A DNA stretch of 27,747 nucleotides from a virus (taxonomy: Duplodnaviria > Heunggongvirae > Uroviricota > Caudoviricetes). Location: IMG/VR virus record IMGVR_UViG_2675903278_000003, one strand, 5' to 3'. The translations under genes and the position numbers were made by a program. The notes below the pieces were generated by a model, which ran no database searches, had not been told where the DNA came from, and was given only the letters and a program-made list of their open reading frames with translations. The first letter of the stretch is position 1. Each line of letters opens with the position of its first letter. Below, piece by piece: positions 5,238-27,591 of the stretch.

Positions 5238-6548
5238 TTAAATCCGAAGTGATGTGACTCTTCCGGTCGGTTTGACAATAGGGAATTGCTTAACGATGAA
5301 ATAACCTCCGGCATCATTCGGGTGATCATTGCCAGATTTTTTATCAGGCTCCCCCTTCTCATCCCAGACCTGTTGCTCCAGAGATTCGGCATATAACGGG
5401 CAACGCTTCACATTAACTTTATAGCGACGCTCACCATTGGCATTGCAGAACATTGCATTCATTGAGTTAACGCGATCTTTTACTGGCGGGTTCGAGCTGT
5501 TCACCACAACGTTAAAACCAGCCTGCTTAAGCTGGGCTATATCCGTCGTACTTGCGTTACTTGATTTTCTGGAATCCCCGGAAGCATCTGGATAAATATA
5601 AATTTCCCTCACTTTCCGGTAATCATTCCCATCATACAGCCAGAAGCGTTCTTTAATGATGCGGATCATATCCGGCGTATCGTAGGCATTGATGATTTCA
5701 GTTACCGCACATGGAAGCCCCAAACGCAGCACATGGACGATTCCCGCCATCTTTCCAACGTTAAAATCCATCCCAATATAAATCGGCTCCCCTGGCTGCT
5801 CCACTTCTTCGCAATTATTCAGTTTCCGGTCAAACTGATGGTAAACAGTACCACTTGTCAGGTTAGTAAACTGTCCTCGAAGATAGGCTTTAATCAGCTC
5901 TGGAGGGTATGATTCAAGAAGCGAAGGAATGTAATCTGCTGGCAGGTTCTTTTCATTATCGAAAGTAGATGCCTGCACCAGACCATACAGTGAGGCCAGC
6001 TCTGTTTTTTCACGCACGGCTTTAACAAACTGCTCGTAGACAAATTTGAATCCTTCCGGCGTGGTTGTAACGTCAATACCGTTGCGAAGTCCATCAATCT
6101 TATAACGCATACGTGCAATTATCTTGCGCCACGCCGTTCTGGCTTTTTCCTTCGGCAAAATGTCCAGTTCATCCACCAACGCATTACCAATTTTGAAACC
6201 GACGATCGTTTGTGGCTTCTCCATCGATCTGCAGATAGTGGTTCCCCGATACTGGCGTCCGTAATAAAAGTGAACCTCTTTATTTCCCTCATTAATTTTT
6301 ACGTTCAATCCCCAGTCAGCAGCAACTTCTTCCACTGTAGGGTAAAAAATATCGCGAATTTGGGGATACGTTGGCGCAAAATATCCCTGATTTATACCTG
6401 GATGCTCCCAAATCCCCTTGCATATGCCGCCACACCCAACCCATATTTTGCCCGAGCCAAAACCAGCAATATAGGCTTTAAATTTATGGGGCATTGAAAG
6501 AAATCGCGCCTGAGGCACATTAAGCGTCGGAGAGATCATCTTCATCAC
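5238..6548 (-). CDS. Terminase large subunit (alternative start at about 6539, MISPTL...)
   Basis: 436-aa ORF with N-terminal P-loop-like 'AYIAGFGSGK' and a C-terminal acidic nuclease-like region (IYIGMDFNVG...DASGDS); immediately follows the small-subunit gene. Confidence 0.8.
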   Translation of the reverse strand: MMKMISPTLNVPQARFLSMPHKFKAYIAGFGSGKIWVGCGGICKGIWEHPGINQGYFAPTYPQIRDIFYPTVEEVAADWGLNVKINEGNKEVHFYYGRQYRGTTICRSMEKPQTIVGFKIGNALVDELDILPKEKARTAWRKIIARMRYKIDGLRNGIDVTTTPEGFKFVYEQFVKAVREKTELASLYGLVQASTFDNEKNLPADYIPSLLESYPPELIKAYLRGQFTNLTSGTVYHQFDRKLNNCEEVEQPGEPIYIGMDFNVGKMAGIVHVLRLGLPCAVTEIINAYDTPDMIRIIKERFWLYDGNDYRKVREIYIYPDASGDSRKSSNASTTDIAQLKQAGFNVVVNSSNPPVKDRVNSMNAMFCNANGERRYKVNVKRCPLYAESLEQQVWDEKGEPDKKSGNDHPNDAGGYFIVKQFPIVKPTGRVTSLRI

Positions 6549-7614
6549 TCCTTACTCTGGCATCAACCACATTAATATTGATCGCCACAGGCTGGGGATG
6601 TTCATTATCTTCCACCGTTTCGATCTCTTTGCGCAGCTTCTGGTTTTCCATTCTGCGCCGTTCAATTTCCAGTTCCTGTAGCCGTTTATCTGCACATAAA
6701 GCCCCGCCAGCAGAAAACAAACGCAACAATTCACGCCGGGCGGCAGCCTTATCCTCCAGCAGGATCTCAACGCCGAATTTTCCGAATTTTGCCCCTGCAT
6801 ATAATTGCCGCGCATCCCCATCAAGCAGAGTGGTATCAGCCATATAAAGCTGTCCCGTTCCCTCACCGCAGCACTTCGGGCAGTCCGGATTGGGTATGGC
6901 GTTATCAACAAAGCCGAGGCCTCCATATTCCGGTTCGGGTTTGCCATCTCTGGAAGCCTGCGCCGCTGCCTTGTCGAATTCTGCTATATCGCGCCACTGG
7001 TAGAGATGATTCTCGCCCCAGCAATAACGGCAGTTAACACGGCGAAATTGTGCAAGCTGATTGGGGTCGGCCAGGACAATAGCCATCAACTGACTCACTA
7101 GTAAATCCAGGTCTGCGGTATAGCGTTTCTGGTACTGATTGCGGAAGTAGCTGATAGCGCGAAAAACCCTGGCATTTCTAAGCATACGACTGGCGTTGCT
7201 GTTAGCTGTCGCACCTTGCCCCTCATAACCGGCTAGTCGGTACGCCTCTGTCGGCTTTTTACCCTGAGCAACAAGCATCGCAAACTTAGCCTGCTGGTCA
7301 GAAATGCCGAATTCATCGGGACAGAACGAAAATTCCTCCGCGTCGCCCTCATTCAGGCCCGCATCGAATACTGGCTTTTTTTCCTGAGATTTTTCGTTCC
7401 GCTTTTGTGCAGTCTGCGCAGATTTTTTCTGCGCACTTTTTTGCGCAGTTTTGCACATTTCTGTCTGCGCATTTTTCGGAGTTTTTTTGATGTAACGACG
7501 GGCTGTTGCGTAATTCAGTCCCCTTGCTTCACACCATGCCACCGGAGATATACCGGAGCGGGTGTATTCAGCAATATACTCCTGCTGCAACGCCCCCCAG
7601 TCCGGTCTGCTCAT
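6520..7614 (-). CDS. Terminase small subunit (Terminase_2 / P27-like core with N-terminal HTH and lysine-rich linker)
   Basis: 364 aa; segment 'QQAKFAMLVAQGKKPTEAYRLAGYEGQGATANSNASRMLRNARVFRAI' resembles the small-terminase signature; gene lies directly upstream of TerL with overlap. Confidence 0.65.
   Translation of the reverse strand: MSRPDWGALQQEYIAEYTRSGISPVAWCEARGLNYATARRYIKKTPKNAQTEMCKTAQKSAQKKSAQTAQKRNEKSQEKKPVFDAGLNEGDAEEFSFCPDEFGISDQQAKFAMLVAQGKKPTEAYRLAGYEGQGATANSNASRMLRNARVFRAISYFRNQYQKRYTADLDLLVSQLMAIVLADPNQLAQFRRVNCRYCWGENHLYQWRDIAEFDKAAAQASRDGKPEPEYGGLGFVDNAIPNPDCPKCCGEGTGQLYMADTTLLDGDARQLYAGAKFGKFGVEILLEDKAAARRELLRLFSAGGALCADKRLQELEIERRRMENQKLRKEIETVEDNEHPQPVAININVVDARVRSDEDDLSDA
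7406..7471. repeat. Cluster of palindromic hexamers TGCGCA (4 exact copies plus TGTGCA and TGCACA variants) inside the terminase small subunit gene
   Basis: Exact 'tgcgca' at 7415-7420, 7430-7435, 7442-7447 and 7466-7471, variants at 7406-7411 and 7453-7458; underlies the KTAQKSAQKKSAQTAQK peptide repeat. Confidence 0.6.
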
Positions 7615-7617
7615 CAG

Positions 7618-7869
7618 TTAGTCCTGATTTTTATCCACCCTGAGTAGTTCGCGCAGAGCAAAGGCATCCCCTTTTCTGGCAAGCTTAAACAATGCCGCTC
7701 GTAACTCGGCTTCACCTTTCGCTCTGCCCTTACGGATGGCCGCATAAAAATCTGTCATTGCTTCCCGATTTTCTTTCAGTCGGTTCAGATCAACATCCAG
7801 AACGTCAGCGATTTGTTGTGCAGTCATCCGGCACGCTGCCAGAGACTCGACTTTCGAATACGGAATCAT
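7618..7869 (-). CDS. Small helix-turn-helix protein just upstream of terminase small subunit (83 aa; possible alternative start at 7827, MTAQQIADVL...)
   Basis: ORF MIPYSKVESLAACRMTAQQIADVLDVDLNRLKENREAMTDFYAAIRKGRAKGEAELRAALFKLARKGDAFALRELL...; stop 4 nt before the TerS start; overlaps the 3' end of the upstream GT2-like gene. Confidence 0.5.
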   Translation of the reverse strand: MIPYSKVESLAACRMTAQQIADVLDVDLNRLKENREAMTDFYAAIRKGRAKGEAELRAALFKLARKGDAFALRELLRVDKNQD

Positions 7870-8737
7870 TTGTCACCCCCATTGATATGCAGGGTGTCTT
7901 CTTCCTGTATTTTTCGTGAAGGATTTTTACTGCAGCGTTGTTCCAGGTGACCTGATGGTGAATGCGTTTATGGCTGGCACCCATCAGTGAGATTTTTACG
8001 CACGACGGCGCATACATGACGGAGTAAAAACTTTTAACGTAGGTTCCGGAATCCAGATACAGCTCGGTCATTCCGCCGCTGTTTTTCTGCGTCTGTTTCT
8101 GCCCTAACTGGACAGCACCGATCGTCATAAACAATTCACCACAGCGACCGAGATTCGTGTACGTATTCACATCCTCGTTAATGCGCCCCATGAATGGGAA
8201 CGGTCGATCAACCGAACAGATAAAGCTGTTCATTGCCTTGCGTTTCACCCACGAAGCATGGCCGCCATTGTCACCAAGAAAATCCCCGCCCTGCGACATA
8301 GCGATGGAAAGAGCAGGTATTGATTCGTAGTACGCCAGCATTTCAGAAAGGATCGCATCCAGTTTCCTTATCGGAAAATAGGCCTGGTCATAGTTGCGAT
8401 CCACCCGAAACTGGAACTCGTGATAATCATCATCGAGCTGAATGAAGTATTTACACCCGACCAGTTTTGCCAGGTCGAAACAGGCATTACGGGCGTAAAA
8501 AATTGAGCGGCGGTCACAGAAATTATCGGCTTCGTCAAAACGACTGGCGATATCGGCTTTGGAAAACACCAGCACCTGTTCACCAAATTCAGCCATGTAC
8601 TGATTCCGTGTCTTATCTTCATCATCAACAACGATAAAAATTTTCCCGGTATAGCCAGCACGACGCAACGTCCGGTAAGTCAGAACTTTGTCCGGTCGCC
8701 CGTGAGTCAGAATAAAGGCGCAAAAATCATCACGCAT
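7805..8737 (-). CDS. GT2-family (GT-A fold) glycosyltransferase-like protein, apparently soluble (310 aa from ATG at 8737, MRDDFCAF...)
   Basis: From the ATG at 8735-8737 (SD 'GGAGGAGG' just upstream): 'FILTHGRPDKV' near residue 10, 'FIVVDDED' (DD about residue 38-39), 'FYARNACFDLAKLVGCKYFIQLDDDY' (ARN...DxD about residue 82-104), a spacing typical of GT2 enzymes; no methyltransferase motifs seen. Confidence 0.55.
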   Translation of the reverse strand: MRDDFCAFILTHGRPDKVLTYRTLRRAGYTGKIFIVVDDEDKTRNQYMAEFGEQVLVFSKADIASRFDEADNFCDRRSIFYARNACFDLAKLVGCKYFIQLDDDYHEFQFRVDRNYDQAYFPIRKLDAILSEMLAYYESIPALSIAMSQGGDFLGDNGGHASWVKRKAMNSFICSVDRPFPFMGRINEDVNTYTNLGRCGELFMTIGAVQLGQKQTQKNSGGMTELYLDSGTYVKSFYSVMYAPSCVKISLMGASHKRIHHQVTWNNAAVKILHEKYRKKTPCISMGVTNDSVFESRVSGSVPDDCTTNR

Positions 8738-9521
8738 ATTCCTCCTCCTCACCACCATGCATGATCTCCACCATGCGCTGCGTCATCCGGACAAATCCAT
8801 TTTCAATAGCCTGCTGATAATCAATGATCACCAGCGCCGACTCCTCGAAAAAACACTGAATTTCAGAGGGGGCGTGAGCGTAATAGTCCGCAATTCTGCT
8901 GAAATTAAACACCGTGTGACGTTCTGCCGCACACAGGAGGAATTTCTCAATATCAGGCTCAAGGGACGCCGAACGTATCCGGCTGATCAGCTCCTGAGTT
9001 TTCGTATCGTCGTACAGTTCACTGATATCCGGTTTACCGCCCGACGGCTCATAAACAGGCGTATCAATTTTCGTCGTATACGGCTCCTCCTCATTTCCTG
9101 TACCGGGCAAAACATCCGTCAACAGTTCATCAATTTCTGTCGGGATGAAGCCTGTCAGGGAGACATCAAAATCAGCATTGATTAGGTCCGACAGCTCCAT
9201 CCGCAACAGATCTTCATCCCAGCCAGCATTCATCGGCAGGCGATTATCTGCCAGGCGGTACGCCTTTTTCTGCTCATCCGTCAGGCCAGACAGAACAATG
9301 ACCGGAACAGAATCCATTTTGAGCATTTCAGCCGCCATAACACGACCGTGACCCGCAATAATTTCGCCCTTTTCGTCAATCAGCACCGGATTAGTCCAGC
9401 CGAATTGCTTAATACTTTCTACCAGTTGTGCCACCTGCTCAGGGCTGTGCGTCCTGGCGTTGTGCGCATACGGTGACAATTCTTGTAATGGGCGATAGAC
9501 TATCTTTAATTTCTCGCTCAT
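8730..9521 (-). CDS. ParB-like nuclease domain (ParB N-terminal / sulfiredoxin fold) protein
   Basis: 263 aa; N-terminal 'QFGWTNPVLIDEKGEIIAGHGRVMAA' resembles the ParB N-terminal domain motif; acidic C-terminus GGEEEEYA; stop TGA at 8730-8732 lies 3 nt after the ATG of the GT2-like gene (8-nt overlap). Confidence 0.7.
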   Translation of the reverse strand: MSEKLKIVYRPLQELSPYAHNARTHSPEQVAQLVESIKQFGWTNPVLIDEKGEIIAGHGRVMAAEMLKMDSVPVIVLSGLTDEQKKAYRLADNRLPMNAGWDEDLLRMELSDLINADFDVSLTGFIPTEIDELLTDVLPGTGNEEEPYTTKIDTPVYEPSGGKPDISELYDDTKTQELISRIRSASLEPDIEKFLLCAAERHTVFNFSRIADYYAHAPSEIQCFFEESALVIIDYQQAIENGFVRMTQRMVEIMHGGEEEEYA

Positions 9522-9532
9522 ACAGCCTTGCT

Positions 9533-9572
9533 TTATGAATAAAACGCACCCCAGCAGCCAGTGCTACTGGGG
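9533..9572 (-). terminator. Putative intrinsic terminator downstream of trkG
   Basis: Hairpin 'ccccag-cagccagtgcta-ctgggg' (9549-9572) followed on the minus strand by 'GCGTTTTATTC'; 87 nt after the trkG stop. Confidence 0.5.
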
Positions 9573-9658: not shown

Positions 9659-11134
9659 TTAGGAGCGCCAAAAAAAACCTGAAAACAATATAATAACAGG
9701 ATAAATTTCAAGGCGACCAAGAATCATAGCTATGCACATTAAACATTTTGCAATGTCATTAAGCACTCCGAATGACGATGCAGTAGCCCCAAAACCTAAT
9801 CCCATATTATTAATACATGCAGCCACTGTTGCAAATGATGTAAGAAAATCATATCCCATACCATTTAACACCAGTATAAAAAACACCGTGAAGAGAGTAT
9901 AAAGAAAAAAGAAACTCCATACAGACCTCATTACACGATCTGTAACTATCTTCCCTCCTACATTTACACTCAACAACGCTCTGGGATGAGAAAGCTGATT
10001 TATCTCGTGTTTGCTTTGTTTGAAAAGTATAAGAAATCGAAGTGACTTAATTCCACCACAAGTTGAACCTATACATCCCCCAAAGAAACTTGACAACAGC
10101 AAAAACACTATCGTGTGCGTGGGCCAACTTGCATAATCCTGCGTAGCTAAACCATTATCAGTGAGCATGGAGCTGGCAAGAAAAAACGAATGAATAAAAC
10201 TTCCATGCAAGTCATACATACCTATATGCCAGACCTGGAAAGAGGTAACAATGATCACCCCTAAGGCTATTAACAGAAAGAAACGAAGTTCAATATCTCT
10301 GATTAAAGGTTTTATCGTTTTCCTGCTAATAACAATATACCAAAGAGTGAAGTTGAAAGCCGATAGCAGGGAAAAAGAACCAGCCACCAGCTCAACCAAA
10401 TAGTTATTAAAATATCCGATACTCTCGCTATGAGTTGAGAAACCACCAAGCGAAACTGTGGAAATCCCGTGACAAATAGCATCAAACAAAGGCATTCCTG
10501 CAAGTCTATAACAGACAATACAAGCAATACCTAATAAAGAATAAGTTATCCACAGTGTCCGTGACGTATCGGCCAGGCGGGGAGTGAGTTTGTCATCCTT
10601 AAATGGCCCCGGCATTTCTGACTGATAAAGCTTTGCACCACCAATACCCAATAATGGCAATACAGCAACCGCCAGAACAATAACTCCTAAACCACCTATA
10701 AAATTTAACTGTGACCGATAGTACAAATATGCCCGAGGTAATGAACTAACATCATCAATTACAGTTGCTCCTGTTGTTGTTATTCCAGAAACCCCTTCAA
10801 ACAGAGCATCAATGAACGTTAAATTAAGTTCTGAGTCAATCCATAAAGGGAATGCACTAATAACAGAAAACAAAATCCAAAACATTACAATTATAATAAA
10901 CCCATCACGGGTACGTAATTGAATGCCAGATTTCTTAGTTGTATACCACGCTCCGCCACCAATGCAAAAAAATATAACGAAAGTTATAAAGAAAACGAAC
11001 AGGCTTTTTTCTTTATAAAACAATGCTACAACCATTGGTGGCAACATTGAAAGACTATAGAGCCAAACCAGGAACCCACACATATGAGTAACAACTCTTA
11101 CATGAGATGTATTCATATCTAAATATTCTTTCAA
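9659..11134 (-). CDS. trkG: TrkH/TrkG-family potassium uptake protein (prophage-borne, TrkG-like)
   Basis: 491-aa multi-TM protein with repeated glycine-rich selectivity-filter-like segments (GITTTGATV, GGLGV, GGFST, GFGAT); markedly AT-rich compared with neighbouring phage genes; sits directly after Rz/Rz1 as trkG does in the E. coli K-12 Rac prophage. Confidence 0.85.
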   Translation of the reverse strand: MKEYLDMNTSHVRVVTHMCGFLVWLYSLSMLPPMVVALFYKEKSLFVFFITFVIFFCIGGGAWYTTKKSGIQLRTRDGFIIIVMFWILFSVISAFPLWIDSELNLTFIDALFEGVSGITTTGATVIDDVSSLPRAYLYYRSQLNFIGGLGVIVLAVAVLPLLGIGGAKLYQSEMPGPFKDDKLTPRLADTSRTLWITYSLLGIACIVCYRLAGMPLFDAICHGISTVSLGGFSTHSESIGYFNNYLVELVAGSFSLLSAFNFTLWYIVISRKTIKPLIRDIELRFFLLIALGVIIVTSFQVWHIGMYDLHGSFIHSFFLASSMLTDNGLATQDYASWPTHTIVFLLLSSFFGGCIGSTCGGIKSLRFLILFKQSKHEINQLSHPRALLSVNVGGKIVTDRVMRSVWSFFFLYTLFTVFFILVLNGMGYDFLTSFATVAACINNMGLGFGATASSFGVLNDIAKCLMCIAMILGRLEIYPVIILFSGFFWRS

Positions 11135-12678: not shown

Positions 12679-13074
12679 CTAACCTCGCATGTCAAAGCCA
12701 GATTTCTGAAAATCTCTGTAGACTTCCGGATTGTTGAAGGCCGGAAATTTGGCTTTATGAGCTGCGGACTTTATCGCTTCGCAATAGGCTTTATCACCGT
12801 TACTGGTAGATATTTTTAACGCCGTGCCATCCTGAGAGAATTCCATATGCAACCTGCATTTTTTCCCTTTCCAGTTATGCGGCTCATCAAGTTTGGCATT
12901 AATTGCAGCTCTGATTCCCCGCGCTTGCGCCCCCCATTCATCCTGATCATCCCAGCGTCCTGAACTGCAACTACCTGTAGCAGTAGTTTTGTGGCAATCT
13001 GAAGGGTGTAAAGGTGTGCATCCCGCAACAAAACCGCCCCAAAAAGTCAACATAACGATTTTCTTTAATCCCAC
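12679..13074 (-). CDS. Predicted lipoprotein A (131 aa, GTG start), paralogue of the adjacent gene
   Basis: SD 'GGAG' 6 nt upstream of GTG at 13074; signal peptide with lipobox 'FVAGC'; C-terminal region 'KKCRLHMEFSQDGTALKI...AYCEAIKSAAHKAKFPAFNNPEVYRDFQKSGFDMRG' aligns with the C-terminus of the 13225-13653 product. Confidence 0.7.
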   Translation of the reverse strand: MGLKKIVMLTFWGGFVAGCTPLHPSDCHKTTATGSCSSGRWDDQDEWGAQARGIRAAINAKLDEPHNWKGKKCRLHMEFSQDGTALKISTSNGDKAYCEAIKSAAHKAKFPAFNNPEVYRDFQKSGFDMRG

Positions 13075-13224: not shown

Positions 13225-13653
13225 TCAGGGTTTAAAATCCAGCACCCCATTTTGAAATACTTTATATACTTCCGGCGAAGGGGGGGCAGGTATATCAGCA
13301 TTCTTTATCGCATTCATCGCTTCACGACATAAATCGAGGTCTCCACTTTCTCTTTTAACCTCCAGTAGAAGGCCATTCGGGGCCATATGCATTCTCAGTG
13401 TACACTCTTTTCCTGAATACTTACTCGCATCCCCGAACTGTTTTTCGATGGCGCTCTTGATTTGATGGGCATACAGACGGATATCCTCACTAACATCAGA
13501 AGTACGTTCAGATGAACTCACATACTGTGTCTCTATTGCTTTATCGGAGTAATATGATGTACGGTCATGATAATTTGTCGATACAGCATCAGTGCACCCG
13601 ATAATAATCCCACTAATAATCAACGTAAGAATTGATGCGCTACGAAAACCCAT
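13225..13653 (-). CDS. Predicted lipoprotein B (142 aa), paralogue of the adjacent gene
   Basis: SD 'GAGGA' upstream of ATG at 13653; signal peptide with lipobox 'IIGC'; C-terminal 'KECTLRMHMAPNGLLLEV...DLCREAMNAIKNADIPAPPSPEVYKVFQNGVLDFKP' parallels lipoprotein A. Confidence 0.7.
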   Translation of the reverse strand: MGFRSASILTLIISGIIIGCTDAVSTNYHDRTSYYSDKAIETQYVSSSERTSDVSEDIRLYAHQIKSAIEKQFGDASKYSGKECTLRMHMAPNGLLLEVKRESGDLDLCREAMNAIKNADIPAPPSPEVYKVFQNGVLDFKP

Positions 13654-17470: not shown

Positions 17471-18670
17471 ATGCCATTTGTTATTTATGTGTTTACTATC
17501 AGTGCCTTTGCGCTCGGACTCGCGGAATTTGTCCCCATTGGGCTGACAGACGTTATGGCTCAGGGGTTGTGTGTGGGTGTGGAGCAGACCGGGGCAGCGG
17601 TTACAACCTATGCACTGGGGGCAACGTTCGCGGCACCCGTACTGTCTGCGCTGACAGCAAGCTGGAGCCGGAAAAATGTAATGCTTACAACTGCCGTTGT
17701 GTTTACTGCCGGTAGTCTGGCGGCCGCGTTTGCAGCCACATTACCTCAGCTCCTGTTAGCGCGGTTCATTGCTGGTCTGGGACACGGCCTGTTTCTGGCT
17801 GCGGCATCCAGTACCGCAGCTCGTCTTGCTGGACCGGGTAAAGCAGGCAGAGCGGTGGCTGTGGTATTTGGTGGCTTTACTCTGGCGATGGCAATCGGCG
17901 TACCGCTGAGTACATGGTTGGGGGGGGTGGTCTCATGGCGTCCAGTTCTCGGCGCTATTGCCGCTTTTGGCGCGTTCGGATTCCTTGGACTGTTGTTCGG
18001 TATGAAAGATCCCGTACGCAGCGTGCCCGGTGAACATAGTGACTCAGCAATGCAGAATATCGGCATGCTGTTTAACCGTAAGTTGCTGGCCGGCGCGCTG
18101 GTTACGGTGCTGGCGTATGCAGGCTCGTTTACGGATTACACCTTTATCGCACCTATTCTGACGCAGGTGACAGGGGTTACCGGAGCAACGGTGAGTCTGT
18201 TTATGCTGGTTTACGGTATTACAGCTGCGGTAGGTAATATTCTTGGTGGGAAACTTACCGACAGCATGGGGGTTAATCGTGCCAATATACTCATCATTAG
18301 CGGCATTGTTGTTGTCGTGCTTGGTATGTGGCTGCTGTCATCCTCACCGGTGAGCATGGGCATTCTGGTTGCGCTGCTGGGTATGGTGACATTTGCCGCA
18401 GTGCCGGCACTGCAGGCCCGTCTGATTGGTGTCGCTGAGCAACATGCTCCTCATGCGCATGGTGTTGCTGCCGGCCTGAATATTGCGGGCTTCAACTCAG
18501 GTATAGCGCTGGGATCAGTACTGGGCAGCATTACTATAAGCCACGCCGGTATCGTGTATACCGGTATCAGCGGTGCGATTGTTTCTCTGCTCGGCCTGCT
18601 GTTGCTGCTTGCACAAATCCGTCGCAGCCACAGTCGTAAATTTCAACAGGTTAAAATCGTAGGCCAGTAA
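17471..18670 (+). CDS. MFS-superfamily transporter (12-TM type)
   Basis: 399-aa hydrophobic, Gly/Ala-rich protein; SD 'CAGGAG' upstream of ATG; first gene of the cargo block. Confidence 0.8.
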   Translation: MPFVIYVFTISAFALGLAEFVPIGLTDVMAQGLCVGVEQTGAAVTTYALGATFAAPVLSALTASWSRKNVMLTTAVVFTAGSLAAAFAATLPQLLLARFIAGLGHGLFLAAASSTAARLAGPGKAGRAVAVVFGGFTLAMAIGVPLSTWLGGVVSWRPVLGAIAAFGAFGFLGLLFGMKDPVRSVPGEHSDSAMQNIGMLFNRKLLAGALVTVLAYAGSFTDYTFIAPILTQVTGVTGATVSLFMLVYGITAAVGNILGGKLTDSMGVNRANILIISGIVVVVLGMWLLSSSPVSMGILVALLGMVTFAAVPALQARLIGVAEQHAPHAHGVAAGLNIAGFNSGIALGSVLGSITISHAGIVYTGISGAIVSLLGLLLLLAQIRRSHSRKFQQVKIVGQ

Positions 18671-18681
18671 AGGGAGGTTAT

Positions 18682-19374
18682 ATGCTTACCCGTGAAAATA
18701 TGCTTAATGGCACATTTGTCAGGGTGCATGAAGCGCTGCTCCCGGCGAATATGCTCTGGGACGCTGAAAAAATACGCGCATCAATGAACTCTACTCTGGA
18801 GGAGCGCCCGACGGGTGCTCCTGTCTGGATATTTGCCTACGGGTCATTGATGTGGAATCCCGTGCTGGCGATTGAAGAAATGCAACGGGCCCGTCTGAAA
18901 GGATGGCAGCGCAGTTTCTGCATTCGTTTGATATCCGGACGAGCGACTCCTGATGTCCCCGGCAGGATGTTATCGCTCGACGAAGGTGGAATTACCGAAG
19001 GTATTGCGTTCAGACTGCCGGAATCGACTCTTATTAATGAGCTGGAAATTGTCTGGACGCGCGAGATGATAACCGGTCTTTACCGTCCGGTCTGGGCAGA
19101 CGTTTCGCTAGGAAACGGTGAGGAAATTCAGGCGCTGGCTTTCGTATCAGACAGACTGCATCCGCATTATGAACAGGACAATCTTACAGCGACCGTAGCG
19201 TTGAGCATCGCATCTGCCCGTGGAGACATTGGCACGAATGCAGATTATGTATGGAAACTGCAGGCCACTCTGGGTGCGTTGGGAATACGGGATGATTACG
19301 TGAGTGAACTGGCCCTTGCTCTGCATGAGGCTCCCTGTAACGATAAACTTCATCAGCGAGGCGCTTCACTATGA
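18682..19374 (+). CDS. ChaC-like gamma-glutamylcyclotransferase family protein
   Basis: 230 aa with 'VWIFAYGSLMWNP' (YGSL motif characteristic of the ChaC/GGCT family); SD 'AGGGAGG' upstream; 11 nt after the MFS stop. Confidence 0.75.
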   Translation: MLTRENMLNGTFVRVHEALLPANMLWDAEKIRASMNSTLEERPTGAPVWIFAYGSLMWNPVLAIEEMQRARLKGWQRSFCIRLISGRATPDVPGRMLSLDEGGITEGIAFRLPESTLINELEIVWTREMITGLYRPVWADVSLGNGEEIQALAFVSDRLHPHYEQDNLTATVALSIASARGDIGTNADYVWKLQATLGALGIRDDYVSELALALHEAPCNDKLHQRGASL

Positions 19375-20252
19375 GCCATCTGAGCCATCTGCGAACGTTT
19401 CTTGAGGCCTATCGCTCTGGCTCCTTTTCAAAGGCGGCAGAACTACTGGGCATCACTCAGCCCGCGGCGTCACAGCATATCCAGTCTCTTGAGACTCTGG
19501 TTGGTAAGCGTCTGTTTATCAGGCAGGCCAGAGGCGTGACGGCAACCGAAGCTGCGGATGAGCTTGCCCGCTCAGTTTCACCCTTCATTGATGGTCTGGA
19601 AGAAAAGCTGTCCTCTTTCCGGTCAGGCTCTGTACGCGGGGGAACAATTAATCTGGCAGGACCGCCAGATTTTATTCATTCCCGGCTTGGGACAGTAATG
19701 GCTCCACTAATGAAGGAGGGGTATCGCCTACGCTTTCATACCGGCAATAAGCAACGTATTTATTCCCTTTTGCATGACGGGAGCGCCGATCTCGCTGTTA
19801 CCGCATCTATGCCTGATGACCGTCTGTACGGCTATGCACATCTACTGACTGAACGCATGCTCCTTGTTCATGCTCCCGCCATGTCAGAGATCATCGGATC
19901 AGAACCTGGTGCTGAAACGCTTGCCTCATTACCGCTGATTGCTTATGACGAAGAGTTGCCACTGATTAGAGCGCTCTGGGCCTCCATGTTTCAGAGAGCC
20001 CCTGAGATGCAGGCTACATTCACCATTCCGGATTTACGTATTATCCGCGACTTGGTCTGTGACGGCCACGGGTGGACAGTGCTGCCGGATTATCACTGTG
20101 ACAATGACCTGAAAAGTGGTCGCCTGATTTCAGTGACACCTGCAGACCTCGCTCCGACTAATCATCTTTATCTGGTCTGGAACAAAAGGACGGCTAATAA
20201 CAGCCGAACCGCCTATGTTCGGGATTACATTCTTAAAACGTTTCCGCGTTGA
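19371..20252 (+). CDS. LysR-family transcriptional regulator
   Basis: N-terminal HTH 'LRTFLEAYRSGSFSKAAELLGITQPAASQHIQSLE' then a substrate-binding-like domain; ATG overlaps the ChaC-like stop (ATGA); the first codons contain a 9-bp tandem duplication 'agccatctgagccatctg' (SHLSHL). Confidence 0.8.
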   Translation: MSHLSHLRTFLEAYRSGSFSKAAELLGITQPAASQHIQSLETLVGKRLFIRQARGVTATEAADELARSVSPFIDGLEEKLSSFRSGSVRGGTINLAGPPDFIHSRLGTVMAPLMKEGYRLRFHTGNKQRIYSLLHDGSADLAVTASMPDDRLYGYAHLLTERMLLVHAPAMSEIIGSEPGAETLASLPLIAYDEELPLIRALWASMFQRAPEMQATFTIPDLRIIRDLVCDGHGWTVLPDYHCDNDLKSGRLISVTPADLAPTNHLYLVWNKRTANNSRTAYVRDYILKTFPR

Positions 20253-20296
20253 TGTTTGAAACGGATGATTGGCGATGCGTATCATAAGTTACGTAT

Positions 20297-20326
20297 GTCC
20301 GCTTCTGGCACAAAGCAGACGCCCAC
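20297..20326. repeat. 30-bp repeat copy 1 ('gtccgcttctggcacaaagcagacgcccac'), partner at 23970-23999
   Basis: 24 of 30 positions identical to the copy at 23970-23999 by eye, with an exact shared core 'ttggcacaaagc' / 'ctggcacaaagc'; lies in the convergent intergenic region between the LysR and DUF2254-like genes. Confidence 0.55.
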
Positions 20327-20382
20327 TCTCACGCGAATGCTTTGCCCTTGACTTGCCAACAACCGTATCGCTTGCTCCGCAA

Positions 20383-21675
20383 CTATGGTTTTTTATTAGA
20401 ATCTTCGCCACTAAATAAATTATAATAAATTGATTTTATTAGATATCTGTCAGAATCTATATGGTCAGCACGAGTAGCATGCTCTAATGTTTCAAATGCT
20501 AGGGTTTGTGCGGCTTCAGCAAAAATTCCAGGCCAACCCTTACTCAGCATCGACAGTCCTTTAAGTACCCTTATCTGAATTTCCCTCATACTGGCACCAT
20601 CGCGCGCAACAGGTGAGAAAAAGTCTTCAAGTAGATCGTTATTCTGAAGTGGTGCAACATGTACAGAAGGATATTTCACTTCTATTTCATCAGATTTATT
20701 CTGCGCGTAAGCGGAAAGTATACGTACACCTCTGCCAATGACATCAATGGCGGTTCCAGGATCGTTCACTGCGGGGGAAAGGGCTCGGCAGGCTATTTCG
20801 GCCATGACGCTAAGACAAAATCGGGGGTCCTGAGCAAATGAACGTACATCCGAGACAATAATCGTCTCAAGTAAATCGGTGCTGATTGATGACTCCTGGC
20901 CCTGACTCAGGTACAAAACTGGCGTGGACGGATGTATGAAACTGCCCGGCTGCGCCACGAGGTATACATGACGGGGATCATTGGTCAGCAGCTTGCTGAG
21001 TTTCACCATATCAACATATTCAACATAGCCAATCTTTTTCGGATAAACTGCAACCGTTCCTTTCGGCTGTTCATTGTTCTCAAGCCATGGATATCCGCCG
21101 AGACAGGGATTTCTTGCTCTCGCAATAAATGTTTCGATGGCCGCCTGTTCTACTTTTGCCGTTGTCTCACCAACCCTCCCCAGAGAGGTCAAATGCTGTA
21201 TCCAGCGAAGCAATGTGATGAGGATTAAGGCAATGACAACCAGTGTTACAATGAATAAAATGACTCTCCCCCTTTCTCCATAAGCTCCCATATTGAGGGC
21301 AATAATCCCTACCAGACTGAAGAGAAAAGAACCGATGAAGGTGGCCAGTACATTTTGTGTGGTGACGTCTTCAACAACTAAACGAGTAGCTCTGGGAGTC
21401 ACATTAGTAGTGGCTGAACCGTAGGCTGTGACCATGATGCTCAGCGAAAATGTGGTCACTGCCAGCATACTCGATGCCAGTATGTTCAGAATGTTATCGA
21501 CTGCTTCCGCACCAACCTTCACGGAAACCGACTCAGGTATCATTGATTTAAAAAGAATTGATAAAAGGGCCGTTATTATTGCGACAATTGCGAATAACGT
21601 TGCCCTGAACCATAGTTTTTTAAATGTCTGCTTCAGCATCCATTTCCAGCGTGAAATCATTCTGCATTCCCTCAT
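20383..21675 (-). CDS. DUF2254-like membrane protein (N-terminal TM helices plus large soluble domain)
   Basis: 430-aa ORF with about four N-terminal hydrophobic helices; family name from memory; start may be at the internal Met (MISRWKW...). Confidence 0.6.
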   Translation of the reverse strand: MRECRMISRWKWMLKQTFKKLWFRATLFAIVAIITALLSILFKSMIPESVSVKVGAEAVDNILNILASSMLAVTTFSLSIMVTAYGSATTNVTPRATRLVVEDVTTQNVLATFIGSFLFSLVGIIALNMGAYGERGRVILFIVTLVVIALILITLLRWIQHLTSLGRVGETTAKVEQAAIETFIARARNPCLGGYPWLENNEQPKGTVAVYPKKIGYVEYVDMVKLSKLLTNDPRHVYLVAQPGSFIHPSTPVLYLSQGQESSISTDLLETIIVSDVRSFAQDPRFCLSVMAEIACRALSPAVNDPGTAIDVIGRGVRILSAYAQNKSDEIEVKYPSVHVAPLQNNDLLEDFFSPVARDGASMREIQIRVLKGLSMLSKGWPGIFAEAAQTLAFETLEHATRADHIDSDRYLIKSIYYNLFSGEDSNKKP

Positions 21676-21723
21676 ATTGCAGCCGGGATAAATAAATGCC
21701 GCCTCTGTGGCGGCATGTTGCTG

Positions 21724-23727
21724 TTAACGAACCAGATGCAGGAAGTGCAGGTGTTTTTCGTACTGGTCCAGTATGTCATTAATCAGCTGTTCCTGATTCC
21801 AGCCCATTACATCATAATTTTGGCCGCCCTCTTTGAGATAGACTTCAGCGCGATAATATCGATGTTGTTCACTCTGCTGCTCATCATTATCCAGCGCAGC
21901 GAGCGCGAAGGTCGGTGAGTTATACCCGCGAAGCCTCACTTCATATATATAATTCAGCTCGTTGCCCAAATCGACTTCAAGGCGAATACGATCCTCGGCG
22001 GCGTCACTGATGTGGCTTATCGTTCCCTGCTTGTTAAGTTCCTCCTGAACCAGCGTCATGGCGGGTTGGATAATGTCGTCCATAAAACGTTTCACAAGAG
22101 AGCGCTTCGGCAAATACGCGATATTGCGTAACCTTCTCTGCCAGGGAATTGGGTTACGTGCAGCCGTAGGAGCAATAGTCGCCATGCTAAGGCTTTCACG
22201 CTTGGTCAAATCCCGACGCAGGGCTTTTAACAGTCCGTATATGGATATTAATAAGATAACTGAGAAGGGCAATGCACTCGCTATCGTTACGGTTTGCAAC
22301 GCACTCAGCCCCCCTGCGATCAGCAGGGCAATAGCAACAACGCCCATGAGCGATGCCCAGAAAATTCGCTGCCAGACGGGCGTGTTTGCCACCCCACCTG
22401 ATGCCAGAGTATCCACAACCATTGCCCCCGAATCAGCAGACGTTACAAAGAAGACGATGACCATCGCCATTGCAATGAATGACAGCACGGAAGAGAACGG
22501 GAAATGCTCCAGGAAATTAAACAGGGCAAGCGCAACATCCTGCTGAACGGTATTGGCGAGGTCAGTGGCGCCCTGGTTCATGATGAGATAGATGGCGCTG
22601 TTTCCAAACACCGTCATCCACATGAGCGTAAAGCCGGCGGGAACAAACAACACGCCAGTCACGAACTCACGAATTGTCCTGCCGCGGGAAACGCGTGCAA
22701 TGAACATACCTACAAACGGCGACCATGAAAGCCACCATCCCCAGTATAATAATGTCCAGCCCCCCAGCCAGTTGCTCGACTTGGGTTCATACGCGTAAAG
22801 GTTGAACGTTTTACTCACCAGTTCCGACAGATAACCACCCGTATTTTCCACAAATGACTTCAGCAGAAGCACAGTGGGACCCAGGCACAAGACCAGCGCC
22901 AGGAGCAACACCGCCAGGCCCAGATTAAGCTCAGACAGGATGCGTATTCCCTTGTCCAGGCCGGACACCACCGAAATCGTCGCTAACCCCGTGATGACCA
23001 CGATCAAAATGACCTGTACCGTTTCATTGATGGGCACGCCGAAAAGATGGTTCAAACCGGCATTCACCTGCAATACACCGTAACCCAGCGATGTTGCAAC
23101 GCCAAAGACAGTGCCTATCACGGCGAAGATATCAACCGCGTGGCCTATAGGCCCGTAAATGCGATCGCCGATAATGGGATAGAGCGCAGAACGCAGCGTT
23201 AAAGGCAGACCGTGACGGTAACTGAAAAAGGCCAGAATCAGCGCCACGATGGCATAAATTGCCCATGCGTGCAGACCCCAGTGGAAGAACGTCAGGCGCA
23301 TGGCTTCCTTCGCTGCCGCAACGGTCTCTGGAGTGCCGACAGGTGGCGAAAGATAATGCATCACAGGTTCGGCAACGCCAAAGAACATCAGGCCGATCCC
23401 CATCCCTGCCGAAAAAAGCATCGCGAACCAGGAGTGGTAGCTGAAATCAGGCTGCGCATGGTCTGGGCCCAGCTTTATATCACCGTAACGTGAGAGTCCA
23501 AGGAACGTGACGCTCAGTAAAATCAGGGCCACAGCAAGTATGTAGAACCAGCTGGCATTCGTGAAGATTTGTTGCTGAAGTAGTTTAAAATTTTTGTCGG
23601 CGACATCCGGGAATACGGCGGCAAAGGCGACAAGAAGGAAAATTAGCAAAGCAGATGTAAAGAATACCGCTTTGTTAATCTGGCTTGTAGACTTCTTTGG
23701 GGTTGTATCATTTTCACTCATAATCAT
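21724..23727 (-). CDS. BCCT-family transporter (BetT/BetU-like choline or glycine-betaine transporter)
   Basis: 667 aa, multi-TM with Trp-rich segment 'GGWTLLYWGWWLSWSPFVGMFIARVSRGRTIREF' typical of BCCT transporters, long hydrophilic C-terminal tail. Confidence 0.85.
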   Translation of the reverse strand: MIMSENDTTPKKSTSQINKAVFFTSALLIFLLVAFAAVFPDVADKNFKLLQQQIFTNASWFYILAVALILLSVTFLGLSRYGDIKLGPDHAQPDFSYHSWFAMLFSAGMGIGLMFFGVAEPVMHYLSPPVGTPETVAAAKEAMRLTFFHWGLHAWAIYAIVALILAFFSYRHGLPLTLRSALYPIIGDRIYGPIGHAVDIFAVIGTVFGVATSLGYGVLQVNAGLNHLFGVPINETVQVILIVVITGLATISVVSGLDKGIRILSELNLGLAVLLLALVLCLGPTVLLLKSFVENTGGYLSELVSKTFNLYAYEPKSSNWLGGWTLLYWGWWLSWSPFVGMFIARVSRGRTIREFVTGVLFVPAGFTLMWMTVFGNSAIYLIMNQGATDLANTVQQDVALALFNFLEHFPFSSVLSFIAMAMVIVFFVTSADSGAMVVDTLASGGVANTPVWQRIFWASLMGVVAIALLIAGGLSALQTVTIASALPFSVILLISIYGLLKALRRDLTKRESLSMATIAPTAARNPIPWQRRLRNIAYLPKRSLVKRFMDDIIQPAMTLVQEELNKQGTISHISDAAEDRIRLEVDLGNELNYIYEVRLRGYNSPTFALAALDNDEQQSEQHRYYRAEVYLKEGGQNYDVMGWNQEQLINDILDQYEKHLHFLHLVR

Positions 23728-27087: not shown

Positions 27088-27591
27088 TTATTGATAGTGT
27101 TTTATGTTCAGATAATGCCCGATGACTTTGTCATGCAGCTCCACCGATTTTGAGAACGACAGCGACTTCCGTCCCAGCTGTGCCAGGTGCTGCCTCAGAT
27201 TCAGGTTATGCCGCTCAATTCGCTGCGTATATCGCTTGCTGATTACGTGCAGCTTTCCCTTCAGGCGGGATTCATACAGCGGCCAGCCATCCGTCATCCA
27301 TATCACCACGTCAAAGGGTGACAGCAGGCTCATAAGACGCCCCAGCGTCGCCATAGTGCGTTCACCGAATACGTGCGCAACAACCGTCTTCCGGAGACTG
27401 TCATACGCGTAAAACAGCCAGCGCTGGCGCGATTTAGCCCCGACGTATCCCCACTGTTCGTCCATTTCCGCGCAGACGATGACGTCACTGCCCGGCTGTA
27501 TGCGCGAGGTTACCGACTGCGGCCTGAGTTTTTTAAGTGACGTAAAATCGTGTTGAGGCCAACGCCCATAATGCGGGCAGTTGCCCGGCAT
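27088..27591 (-). CDS. insB: IS1 InsB reading frame (expressed as InsAB' fusion by -1 frameshift)
   Basis: 167-aa frame matching the partial copy at 2-283 apart from Q vs R at one position. Confidence 0.85.

Follow-up and report, generated by a model that had tools for sequence, protein, structure and literature searches.

Phage enzymes that glycosylate DNA have been known only as the last step after 5-hydroxymethyl-pyrimidine synthesis, and most of the 'orphan' phage glycosyltransferases were left aside by surveys, their relevance being unclear (PMC13216743; bioRxiv 10.1101/2023.12.21.572611). The characterised phage members of the TAGT family glycosylate DNA, and every characterised DNA-acting TAGT uses a hydroxymethyl-pyrimidine acceptor, either 5hmC or 5hmU (PMC13216743; bioRxiv 10.1101/2023.12.21.572611). 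For the phage GT-A DNA glycosyltransferases the motif R...DDD...ED[YF] was reported (bioRxiv 10.1101/2023.12.21.572611). GREB1, another member of the TAGT family, glycosylates protein instead of DNA (PMC7968844). Iyer et al. 2013 (NAR 41:7635) reportedly named the TAGT family and proposed that ParB directs modification enzymes. O'Toole et al. described phage ParB-like proteins as required activators of their cognate thymine dioxygenases on dsDNA (PNAS 2026, PMC13229309). Moreover, Kaljevic et al. reported that ParB-N6_N4_Mtase fusions are enriched in prophages (2025, PMC12704722).

Here we describe a ParB-like protein and a glycosyltransferase (GT) encoded by adjacent genes of an intact Escherichia coli Rac prophage, which lies in a 27.7-kb stretch of DNA referred to as the window. 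The pair resembles 5mYOX176/ParB176 (PMC13229309), where a DNA-modifying enzyme is likewise encoded next to its cognate ParB-like protein, often near terminase genes. Both ParB-like proteins consist of an NBD, an unstructured linker and a C-terminal domain (CTD) and lack a DNA-binding HTH, the CTDs being compared by architecture only. However, the enzyme of 5mYOX176/ParB176 is an Fe/2OG dioxygenase, whereas the enzyme described here is a TAGT glycosyltransferase and no TET/JBP match was obtained anywhere. Dependence on the partner was reported for the dioxygenase, whereas for the GT we infer it. The beta-glucosyl-HMC-alpha-glucosyltransferase of T2/T6 and the TET-associated glycosyltransferases belong to the same Pfam/PHROG family as the GT and share its GT-A fold and the R...DDD...ED motif. 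In contrast to the GT, they act on 5hmC, 5hmU or glucosyl-5hmC provided by phage hydroxymethylases or TET-like dioxygenases. The T-even enzymes also accompany an alpha- or beta-GT, neither of which is encoded here, and the T-even-type relatives are only 22-24% identical to the GT and have no detectable homologue of its CTD partner.

The N-terminal domain of the partner is homologous to that of ParB-fused phage DNA methyltransferases (phrog_498; PADLOC MTase_II) with E values of 1e-38 to 1e-50. In those fusions the catalytic part is located in the same chain, whereas here a separate GT appears to be connected via a dedicated CTD and translational coupling. The partition ParB/Noc/KorB CTPase clamps share the fold of the N-terminal domain, and residues that align with their phosphate-binding Arg and Asn are kept. 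Yet the partner lacks an HTH as well as a ParA-binding motif and has no ParA beside it; it is an acidic protein, and its hydrolysis residues differ. Animal GREB1 has the same TAGT domain family, and UniRef calls the E. coli protein a 'GREB1-related protein'. However, GREB1 is a cytoplasmic protein of 1949 aa that O-GlcNAcylates the oestrogen receptor, without a ParB partner or any known action on DNA (PMC7968844). We found no relevant literature on the E. coli protein accessions, on ynaK/ydaY or on a DNA glycosyltransferase in a temperate phage.

Results

Both genes are located on the minus strand, and all coordinates given in an initial annotation of this sequence hold (Table 1). The stop codon of the ParB-like gene and the start codon of the GT gene lie within the overlap ATGCGTGA, which is the basis for translational coupling of the two genes as already proposed in that annotation. 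The ribosome-binding sequence that had been ascribed to the GGEEEE codons was recovered as GAGGAGGAGG, and the same purine-rich run precedes the GT start in enterobacterial relatives. Among about 90 related loci, nearly all retain an overlap of 4, 8, 11, 14 or 17 nt.

Table 1. Features of the gene pair and its neighbourhood, with positions given as those of the window.
Feature	Position	Strand	Description
TerL	5238-6548	-	same terminase profile matches as the 5238-7614 block
TerS	6520-7614	-	terminase genes span 5238-7614; Terminase_2, Terminase_6N and Terminase_6C profiles
Small ORF	7618-7869	-	83 aa, or 69 aa with the RefSeq start (7827); overlaps the 3' end of GT
GT gene	7805-8737	-	310 aa; ATG 8737-8735, same start in RefSeq
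D102-D103-D104 codons	8426-8434	-	predicted metal/nucleotide-sugar-binding DxD of GT-A enzymes
Start/stop overlap ATGCGTGA	8730-8737	-	8 nt common to both genes; GT ATG and ParB-like TGA
ParB-like gene	8730-9521	-	ORF 9521->8730, 263 aa, ending ...GGEEEEYA-TGA; stop 8732-8730
Shine-Dalgarno-like run GAGGAGGAGG	8741-8750	-	in the ParB-like CDS (GGEEEE codons), 3 nt 5' of the GT ATG
Helical C-terminal domain (CTD)	8757-9026	-	residues 166-255; all-helical, about 90 residues; model confidence low
Disordered linker	9027-9089	-	residues 145-165, pLDDT 32-39
N-terminal ParB/Srx domain, predicted to bind nucleotides	9117-9521	-	residues 1-135; no HTH after it; ParB fold supported by profile and structure
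Hairpin terminator of the trkG moron	9549-9572	-	about 18 nt ahead of the ParB-like ribosome-binding site

On the 3' side of the GT gene the small ORF, TerS and TerL follow without real gaps, which agrees with the earlier placement of the pair just upstream of the terminase. The small ORF matches phrog_309 (E 8.3e-23) and is related to part of a terminase small-subunit family. In the related loci L044-L062 its identity is 59-70%, though TerS and TerL differ there. Present in 6 of 21 diverse loci, it is a companion of the pair only in enterobacterial prophages. On the other side, the ParB-like gene is separated from the lysis genes by the trkG moron and its strong hairpin terminator, so that the description of the pair as being inside the late operon was imprecise. 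In the RNA fold this hairpin reached -22.5 kcal/mol with a z of -3.39 (0/200 shuffles equally stable) and is followed by UUUUAUU. The GC content of trkG is 37.8% compared to 48-50% for the pair. Because the terminator is located 5' of the pair, its expression is implied to occur via read-through of an antiterminated late transcript. The site between lysis and packaging genes is a known slot for accessory genes.

The GT is a soluble GT-A enzyme of the Pfam family TAGT (PF20691), as seen from its profile match and the fold of its AF2 model. PF20691 was matched with an E value of 5.7e-35; the score of 121.6 bits is well above the cut-off of 27.5, and the match extends over positions 4-205 of the 205 in the profile. 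For phrog_842 the E value was 4.5e-103. RefSeq lists the protein as 'hypothetical protein' (WP_001204037.1). The initial annotation had recognised a GT2-like glycosyltransferase by its landmark spacing and had found no match to a characterised system. The landmarks are in place (VVDDED 36-41, ARN 82-84 and LDDDY 101-105) and the assignment as a glycosyltransferase stands, whereas the family is more precisely TAGT. A match at the family level is thus available, TAGT being a named family of enzymes that glycosylate DNA bases. Residues R14, D41, R83, D102-D104, N187, D189 and H261 are invariant in the GT alignments A1 and A3, and E188 is nearly invariant. Thus the active-site motif R...DDD...ED is intact (R83...D102-D104...E188-D189).

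The AF2 model of the GT had a pLDDT of 74 overall and above 85 for residues 1-150, the C-terminal part being of low confidence. Foldseek searches of the PDB returned GT-A enzymes (E ~1e-4), and searches of BFVD returned TAGT-domain phage proteins (E 4e-27, TM 0.76-0.83). The closest structural neighbours were phage TAGT proteins including a T-even-type beta-glucosyl-HMC-alpha-GT. A 19-residue Kyte-Doolittle scan with a maximum mean of 1.08 revealed no hydrophobic or membrane segment, as had been suspected from the sequence. Moreover, profile searches gave no Glycos_transf_2 match for the GT and no gtr genes in the window. A seroconverting GtrB-type or other surface glycosyltransferase was therefore rejected, given the lack of a membrane segment and of gtr genes as well as the late-operon position.

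The partner corresponds to full-length E. coli ynaK and is acidic (pI 4.5). It matches PF02195 with 28.9 bits and, over its full length, phrog_620 with an E value of 8.5e-91; RefSeq labels it 'ParB/Srx family N-terminal domain-containing protein' (gene ynaK). The ParB/sulfiredoxin fold named in the initial annotation is borne out by profile and structure. The term nuclease turned out to be a label only, as there is no sign of nuclease activity and the domain is a putative NTP-binding ParB/Srx domain. In the alignment, R23, R60 (within GHGR) and N93 of this domain fall at the phosphate-binding positions, namely Box I Arg, Box II GxxR and Box III Asn. The residues for CTP hydrolysis are replaced, Q by N21 and E by H58. 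The partner reached 38.5 bits with TIGR00180 against a cut-off of 58.45, over residues 11-94 only. Neither a DNA-binding domain or HTH in the partner model nor a parA gene in the window was found. A canonical partition ParB was excluded for lack of an HTH and ParA and for a TIGR00180 score below the cut-off. Searches with defence and anti-defence models gave the methyltransferase-type N-terminal domain of the partner as the sole match.

The linker of the partner carries the motif Y148-T-x-K151-I-x-x-P155-x-Y157-E-P159-x4-P164. Across 77 sequences, with stand-alone proteins among them and sources as distant as E. coli and a haloarchaeal virus, Y148 is conserved in 96%, K151 in 90%, P155 in 96%, Y157 in 97%, P159 in 92% and P164 in 94%. 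Profile and structure searches yielded no Pfam or PDB relative of the CTD, in which the polar residues K174, R201, H202, Y214, H216, E226, S228 and D234 are near-invariant.

A lack of co-occurrence in other genomes had been named in the initial annotation as a refutation; instead, the two genes were found together essentially without exception. Of the 80 best IMG/VR loci, 79 have a ParB-like homologue directly upstream of the GT, whereas in the other one, L081, it is located 3.2 kb upstream. The same gene arrangement occurs in phages of Lactobacillus, Haloarcula, Nocardia and Porphyromonas. Among species genomes with upstream sequence from more than 20 phyla, the homologue lies within 3 kb in 77/77 and is adjacent in 73. 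The paired genes thus recur in viruses of more than 20 bacterial phyla and of archaea. Clustering of neighbours in 21 diverse loci showed that only the partner and GT families are common to all of them, and a hidden third gene was thereby rejected. In every one of the sampled relatives the pair precedes a terminase, and these terminases are unrelated (TerL_ATPase-type, GpA-type and others). Of the partner, large lytic phages keep only the linker and the CTD. Such stand-alone partners of 120-200 aa are encoded directly upstream of the TAGT gene in Vibrio 191-kb phages and in three large metagenomic phages, the Vibrio protein being 52% identical (E 8e-40). These large-phage pairs are set among genes for replication, nucleotides and sugar nucleotides.

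All 28 phage records with the CTD also contain the GT. Divergence of the GT correlated with that of the CTD at r 0.89 and with that of the N-terminal domain at r 0.72. Judged by these comparisons, it is the CTD rather than the ParB domain that is genetically tied to the GT. The genome comparisons show a pairing that is obligatory and co-evolving, with two genes that are self-sufficient. None of the top 150 representatives was a partner-GT fusion. Their long proteins carry a fused second TAGT, SAM methyltransferase, sulfotransferase or P-loop domain, or else represent assembly chimeras.

We also searched for a source of the hydroxymethyl-pyrimidine that is used by the known DNA-acting members of the family. 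In the window there is no such source (5mYOX, C5-methyltransferase or ThyS-type hydroxymethylase) and no alpha- or beta-GT. The same holds for the SE11 Rac prophage, for the complete genomes of the phages c5 and phi jlb1, and for seven Pfam-annotated loci from six metagenomic phages, each inspected over +/-10 kb. The pair is present in small phages without an accompanying TET/JBP dioxygenase or hydroxymethylase, where the absence of TET/JBP was judged from Pfam-annotated contigs and record annotations. A gap of 1.4 kb ahead of the ParB-like gene of phi jlb1 contains no long ORF.

Discussion

In our view DNA modification, which the initial annotation had suggested beside virion modification and anti-restriction, remains the best functional reading of this locus. 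We propose that the pair is a two-component DNA glycosyltransferase that acts late, before packaging, with a probability of roughly 0.55. The TAGT-family GT-A enzyme would be the catalytic subunit, and the linker motif together with the CTD would form a dedicated partner that activates the GT or selects its substrate. The GT and its partner would form a physical complex, and DNA is the presumed target. In temperate phages the ParB/Srx domain of the partner may load or hold the GT on dsDNA. Translational coupling could provide both proteins in a fixed proportion. Both proteins, like the terminase, would be produced from the antiterminated late transcript. Because of this co-expression with the terminase, progeny DNA would be modified around packaging, receiving sugar just before or during this step. 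At the next infection the sugar may shield the DNA from host nucleases, and a protective role of the modification thus seems plausible. DNA modification is still something that we infer, since the genes include none that would provide the acceptor group. Possible but doubtful is a version in which canonical DNA itself receives the sugar without a hydroxymethyl handle, be it on the exocyclic amine of a base or on another universal DNA group. In that version substrates would be recognised, or the active site completed, by the conserved domain of the partner. Several points speak against a DNA glycosyltransferase: there is no hydroxymethyl-pyrimidine source, GREB1 has a protein target, and the partner is acidic and has no DNA-binding domain. 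The lack of a partner-GT fusion in the top 150 and the low-confidence models of the C-terminal part of the GT and of the CTD belong here as well.

The GT might instead be a protein glycosyltransferase, which we regard as unlikely. Its acceptor would be Y148, T149 or Y157 of the partner linker, in a glycogenin-like manner, or another phage protein, and the functional product would be a modified protein and not DNA. A cassette of this kind would be self-sufficient with two genes, and the lack of a hydroxymethyl-pyrimidine pathway would fit. The near-invariant hydroxyl-bearing motif in a disordered segment of the partner, kept from archaeal to bacterial viruses, and the O-GlcNAcylation of protein by the TAGT domain of GREB1 (PMC7968844) point in the same direction. 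So do the structural neighbours of the GT, which include the peptide-glycosylating ThuS and SunS as well as glycogenin. However, these peptide-GT matches are weak (E ~1e-4, TM 0.3-0.4) and no better than those to other GT-A enzymes. Moreover, DNA is the substrate of every phage member of the family that has been characterised, the N-terminal domain of the partner is of the type fused to DNA methyltransferases, and the large-phage pairs are found among replication and nucleotide-metabolism genes. Less likely still, the GT could be a conventional hydroxymethyl-pyrimidine glycosyltransferase with a handle from an unrecognised enzyme, either the partner CTD or an unannotated phage or host protein. 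The known chemistry of the family requires 5hmC or 5hmU, and H202, H216, E226 and D234 of the CTD are near-invariant and resemble a metal or ligand site. O'Toole et al. also described thousands of contigs with a phage-5mYOX profile but without a TET/JBP Pfam annotation (PMC13229309). Nevertheless, the CTD is all-helical, comprises only about 90 residues and has no similarity to any oxygenase; no third gene is common to the 21 loci, and the small complete genomes contain no unassigned dioxygenase-sized ORF in the region.

We give similarly little credence to RNA or a small molecule as the acceptor, such as a nucleotide-derived immune signal or a component of the nucleotide pool, in which case the pair would be a counter-defence enzyme. 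Its position in the accessory-gene slot between lysis and packaging genes would suit such a role, no acceptor-forming enzyme is present, and one structural neighbour of the GT is the nucleoside-glycosylating AvpGT bound to Ara-A. Yet the strict ParB/Srx-fused partner and the fixed terminase-adjacent place in many unrelated phages would then be left unexplained, and nothing besides the methyltransferase-type N-terminal domain matched the defence or anti-defence models. That the genes are mere neighbours is very improbable. The ParB-like protein would then be a packaging or partition accessory or a nuclease, in line with its annotation label 'partition protein/nuclease' and with the frequent occurrence of ParB-like genes beside terminases, and the GT would be an unrelated moron, for instance for cell-surface modification. 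This is contradicted by the co-occurrence data, as adjacency, overlap and co-divergence hold across more than 20 phyla and a partner without the ParB domain still precedes the GT. Besides, the GT has no membrane segment, and GtrA/GtrB-type genes are missing.

One large clade of 'orphan' GTs is thus not orphan, since it always has a dedicated partner domain that is usually fused to ParB/Srx. This clade adjoins packaging genes, and the hosts of the viruses concerned are very distant from one another. Should the pair modify DNA, the ParB-dependent DNA-modifying enzymes would extend from dioxygenases to glycosyltransferases. The pair might then also bring to light how unmodified bases can be modified, with a bearing on restriction evasion, sequencing signals and biotechnology. 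Direct attachment of sugar to canonical DNA, if true, would be a new class of DNA modification from a two-gene module that is spread in bacterial and archaeal tailed viruses.

The cassette is carried by about one sixth of the complete E. coli genomes. As a possible remnant of the GT in K-12, ydaY was rejected because it sits in the tail region of the SE11 Rac prophage. Since the prophage is common in E. coli and was lost from K-12, where ynaK is truncated and the GT is missing, the two-gene system would be simple to test in K-12.

Pairing of the glycosyltransferase with a ParB-like protein

As the initial annotation had described, the ParB-like ORF (9521 to 8730, 263 aa) ends with ...GGEEEEYA-TGA, the glycosyltransferase (GT) gene starts at ATG 8737 with an overlap in ATGCGTGA, and the GAGGAGGAGG run encoded by the GGEEEE codons stops 3 nt before this start. 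Among relatives the stop/start overlap is kept at 4, 8, 11, 14 or 17 nt. An alternative upstream ATG at 8758, inside the ParB-like gene, would add seven residues (MVVRRRN) to the GT.

Across phage and prokaryotic genomes the ParB-like partner is found beside the GT. Of the 80 IMG/VR loci that match the GT best (56-100% identity), 79 have a full-length homologue directly upstream; at the remaining locus (L081) it is located 3.2 kb upstream. The same arrangement occurs in Lactobacillus gasseri phage phi jlb1, L. delbrueckii phage c5, Haloarcula virus HHTV-2, Nocardia phage NTR1 and a Porphyromonas phage whose GT is only 28% identical, as well as at all seven Pfam-annotated loci examined, from six metagenomic phages. 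When one genome per prokaryotic species was scanned, members of over 20 phyla proved to carry the GT clade, Saccharibacteria and an archaeal MAG among them, and the partner was within 3 kb at 77/77 species loci with upstream sequence (directly adjacent in 73). Terminases are always encoded downstream of the pair but belong to unrelated families (Terminase_6 here; TerL_ATPase, GpA and others elsewhere). Neighbour clustering of 21 diverse loci revealed only the GT and the partner as common to all 21, the next family reaching 6/21. Partner and GT are one unit.

The glycosyltransferase

The second gene had been annotated as a soluble glycosyltransferase. This assignment was borne out by a profile search, which placed the protein in the TET-associated glycosyltransferase family (TAGT, PF20691) with 121.6 bits at a cut-off of 27.5. 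Its 310 residues carry the reported landmarks (DD at 38-39, ARN at 82-84, LDDDY at 101-105), and no hydrophobic segment that could serve as membrane anchor was found. The protein belongs to phrog_842, annotated 'beta-glucosyl-HMC-alpha-glucosyltransferase', and UniRef lists its relatives as 'GREB1-related' or 'TET-associated glycosyltransferase domain' proteins. The motif R...DDD...ED, reported for phage GT-A DNA glycosyltransferases (bioRxiv 10.1101/2023.12.21.572611), is invariant in alignments of relatives as R83, D102-D104 and E188-D189, E188 nearly so. No related solved structure was detectable by sequence. In the AF2 model the nucleotide-sugar-binding half is confident; the model matched only distant GT-A enzymes in the PDB (E about 1e-4), and TAGT-domain phage proteins in BFVD, a library of viral protein models, at E 4e-27 and TM 0.76-0.83, with a T-even-type beta-glucosyl-HMC-alpha-GT lower in the list. 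At its C-terminus the E. coli GT has some 28 residues that are absent from other homologues; this tail has low model confidence and extends past the start of the next ORF.

A search with a profile built from close relatives retrieved 1,502 clusters (50% identity), of which 715 matched at E<=1e-30. Several close relatives are fusions (P0247, P0254, P0264, P0289, P0262, P0273, P0267, P0293, P0300). The added domain is a SAM-dependent methyltransferase, which may sit at either end, a carbohydrate sulfotransferase (Sulfotransfer_2), another TAGT domain or, at the N-terminus, a P-loop domain (about 180 aa) without Pfam match. These types look like glycan-tailoring combinations, and those with a methyltransferase, a sulfotransferase or another TAGT domain would agree with a glycan product that is further decorated.

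The partner protein

The partner is acidic (pI 4.5), misses the partition-ParB threshold in the profile search and has no HTH after its ParB/Srx domain. Residues 136-165 are predicted to be disordered and contain the near-invariant motif Y-T-x-K-I-x-x-P-x-Y-E-P-x4-P, followed by a predicted helical domain (166-255) for which no relatives were found in Pfam or PDB. Near-invariant polar residues of this domain are K174, R201, H202, Y214, H216, E226, S228 and D234.

In 191-kb Vibrio phages the gene preceding the GT encodes a 139-aa protein that matches only residues 136-244 of the E. coli partner (52% identity, E 8e-40), and the pair is flanked by primase/exonuclease and helicase genes. About sixty clusters comprise such stand-alone partners of 120-200 aa lacking a ParB domain. 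In all three large-phage contigs examined they are immediately followed by the TAGT gene, amid genes for DNA polymerase, gyrase/topoisomerase and thymidylate synthesis, and in one also sugar-nucleotide genes. The neighbourhood of this kind in L094, a contig of about 303 kb from a large phage, suggests a tailored sugar donor. In the phage collection, 28/28 records with the partner's C-terminal domain also have the GT. Among 67 non-redundant loci the divergence of this domain follows that of the GT with r 0.89, compared with 0.72 for the N-domain, and several loci combine an N-domain of just 24-33% identity with a C-terminal domain that still reaches 45-59%. From the stand-alone proteins and this tighter co-divergence we conclude that the linker motif and C-terminal domain constitute the dedicated partner of the GT, and the ParB/Srx domain an exchangeable add-on used in temperate phages.

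Acceptor and proposed mechanism

Characterised DNA-acting TAGT enzymes transfer sugar onto 5hmC, 5hmU or glucosyl-5hmC (PMC13216743; bioRxiv 10.1101/2023.12.21.572611), whereas the cassette described here occurs without any hydroxymethyl-pyrimidine pathway. Genes for a TET/JBP dioxygenase, a C5-methyltransferase or a hydroxymethylase are absent from the window, from the SE11 Rac prophage, from the complete c5 (31.8 kb) and phi jlb1 (38.3 kb) genomes, and from the 10 kb on either side of the GT in the metagenomic phages examined. As the hosts of pair-bearing phages span haloarchaea to Bacteroidota, a host-made acceptor is unlikely. Therefore, the acceptor must either be something universal, for which canonical DNA and the partner protein itself come into question, or be produced by an unrecognised activity. 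Direct glycosylation of canonical DNA is a tentative proposal that we consider rather doubtful.

We favour, with a probability of about 0.55, a two-component DNA glycosyltransferase. The TAGT enzyme would be the catalytic component, the partner's linker and C-terminal domain would bind it and either activate it or set its substrate, and the ParB/Srx domain would keep the complex on double-stranded DNA. Because both proteins would be made late and in coupled amounts, progeny genomes could be modified before packaging. The closest precedent is a May 2026 report of phage ParB-like proteins as obligatory, cognate-specific activators of thymine dioxygenases on dsDNA (PMC13229309). These proteins are built like the partner, with an NBD, an unstructured linker and a CTD but without a DNA-binding domain. 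Iyer et al. 2013 are cited as having proposed earlier that ParB steers modification enzymes during packaging.

The TAGT-domain protein GREB1 is a protein O-GlcNAc transferase (PMC7968844), and in the linker of the partner an invariant Tyr or Thr might likewise be the acceptor, which we regard as unlikely. A cryptic route to hydroxymethyl-pyrimidines, possibly via the partner's C-terminal domain, seems more improbable still, and we give equally little weight to RNA or a small molecule as acceptor. That the two genes are mere neighbours is contradicted by the co-occurrence data and hardly credible.

Both protein families and the association of ParB with phage DNA-modification clusters were already known. 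Glycosyltransferases go unmentioned in a survey of ParB-fold proteins (PMC12704722), and our literature search found no paper on the ParB-like/GT pair or on the E. coli proteins. New are a large 'orphan' TAGT clade strictly bound to one uncharacterised partner domain, the sufficiency of two genes for a cassette from which any hydroxymethyl-pyrimidine pathway is absent, and its location in a common E. coli prophage.

Prophage setting

The window comes from an intact E. coli prophage of the lambdoid Rac type, of which it represents the late and early region. A 2.1-kb segment surrounding the pair shows 100% identity to strain SE11 and to many others. At least 80% of this segment is found in 867 of 5,426 complete E. 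coli genomes and in ten induced-prophage records; in K-12 a truncated ynaK is the sole remnant. According to the SE11 annotation and the ORF map, the minus-strand order is holin, lysozyme, Rz, trkG, ynaK, 'hypothetical protein', a small ORF, TerS, TerL, portal and head genes. Since a strong trkG terminator lies just before the ParB-like gene, the only source of its expression is most likely the Q-antiterminated late transcript, which the pair shares with terminase. The small ORF is related to a family of terminase small subunits, specifically to their C-terminal part, and accompanies the pair in enterobacterial prophages, even next to other TerS/TerL types. A role as DNA-binding accessory, either to the cassette or to packaging, is conceivable.

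Features of the window and of related loci
Feature	Position	Strand	Remarks
Small ORF	window 7618-7869	-	83 aa (69 aa from RefSeq start at 7827); overlaps GT 3' end; phrog_309
GT C-terminal tail	window 7805-7891	-	GT residues 283-310
GT gene	window 7805-8737	-	
ParB-like gene (ynaK)	window 8730-9521	-	
Hairpin terminator of trkG	window 9549-9572	-	-22.5 kcal/mol, z -3.4; ends ~18 nt before ribosome-binding site of ParB-like gene
trkG, potassium-transporter moron	window 9659-11134	-	GC 37.8% vs about 48% in neighbours; between lysis cassette and ParB-like gene
Two tandem ORFs with TolA C-terminal domains	window 12679-13074, 13225-13653	-	just upstream of holin
Cargo island	window 17471-23727	+	MFS transporter, ChaC-like protein, LysR regulator
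		-	DUF2254 membrane protein, BCCT transporter
IS1 transposase ORF	window 27088-27591	-	window edge, adjoining repressor-side genes
Region upstream of ParB-like gene, phage phi jlb1	L089 11350-12746		1.4 kb directly upstream without long ORF
Four tandem GT2-type glycosyltransferase genes, ParB-TAGT-bearing metagenomic phage	L090 17837-20316, L091 8659-11138		directly after capsid gene; may serve virion glycosylation
Sugar genes adjoining stand-alone partner and TAGT gene	L094 1936-9336		UDP-glucose dehydrogenase-like, NAD-dependent sugar epimerase/dehydratase, PIG-L deacetylase, polysaccharide deacetylase; ThyA and DHFR 4 kb downstream

The cargo island separates the Q/nin region from the replication genes; in the SE11 Rac prophage its position is taken by an IS3 element together with genes for a TPR and a DUF262 protein. 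The phage-encoded TolA-like proteins might interfere with Tol-dependent phages or colicins.
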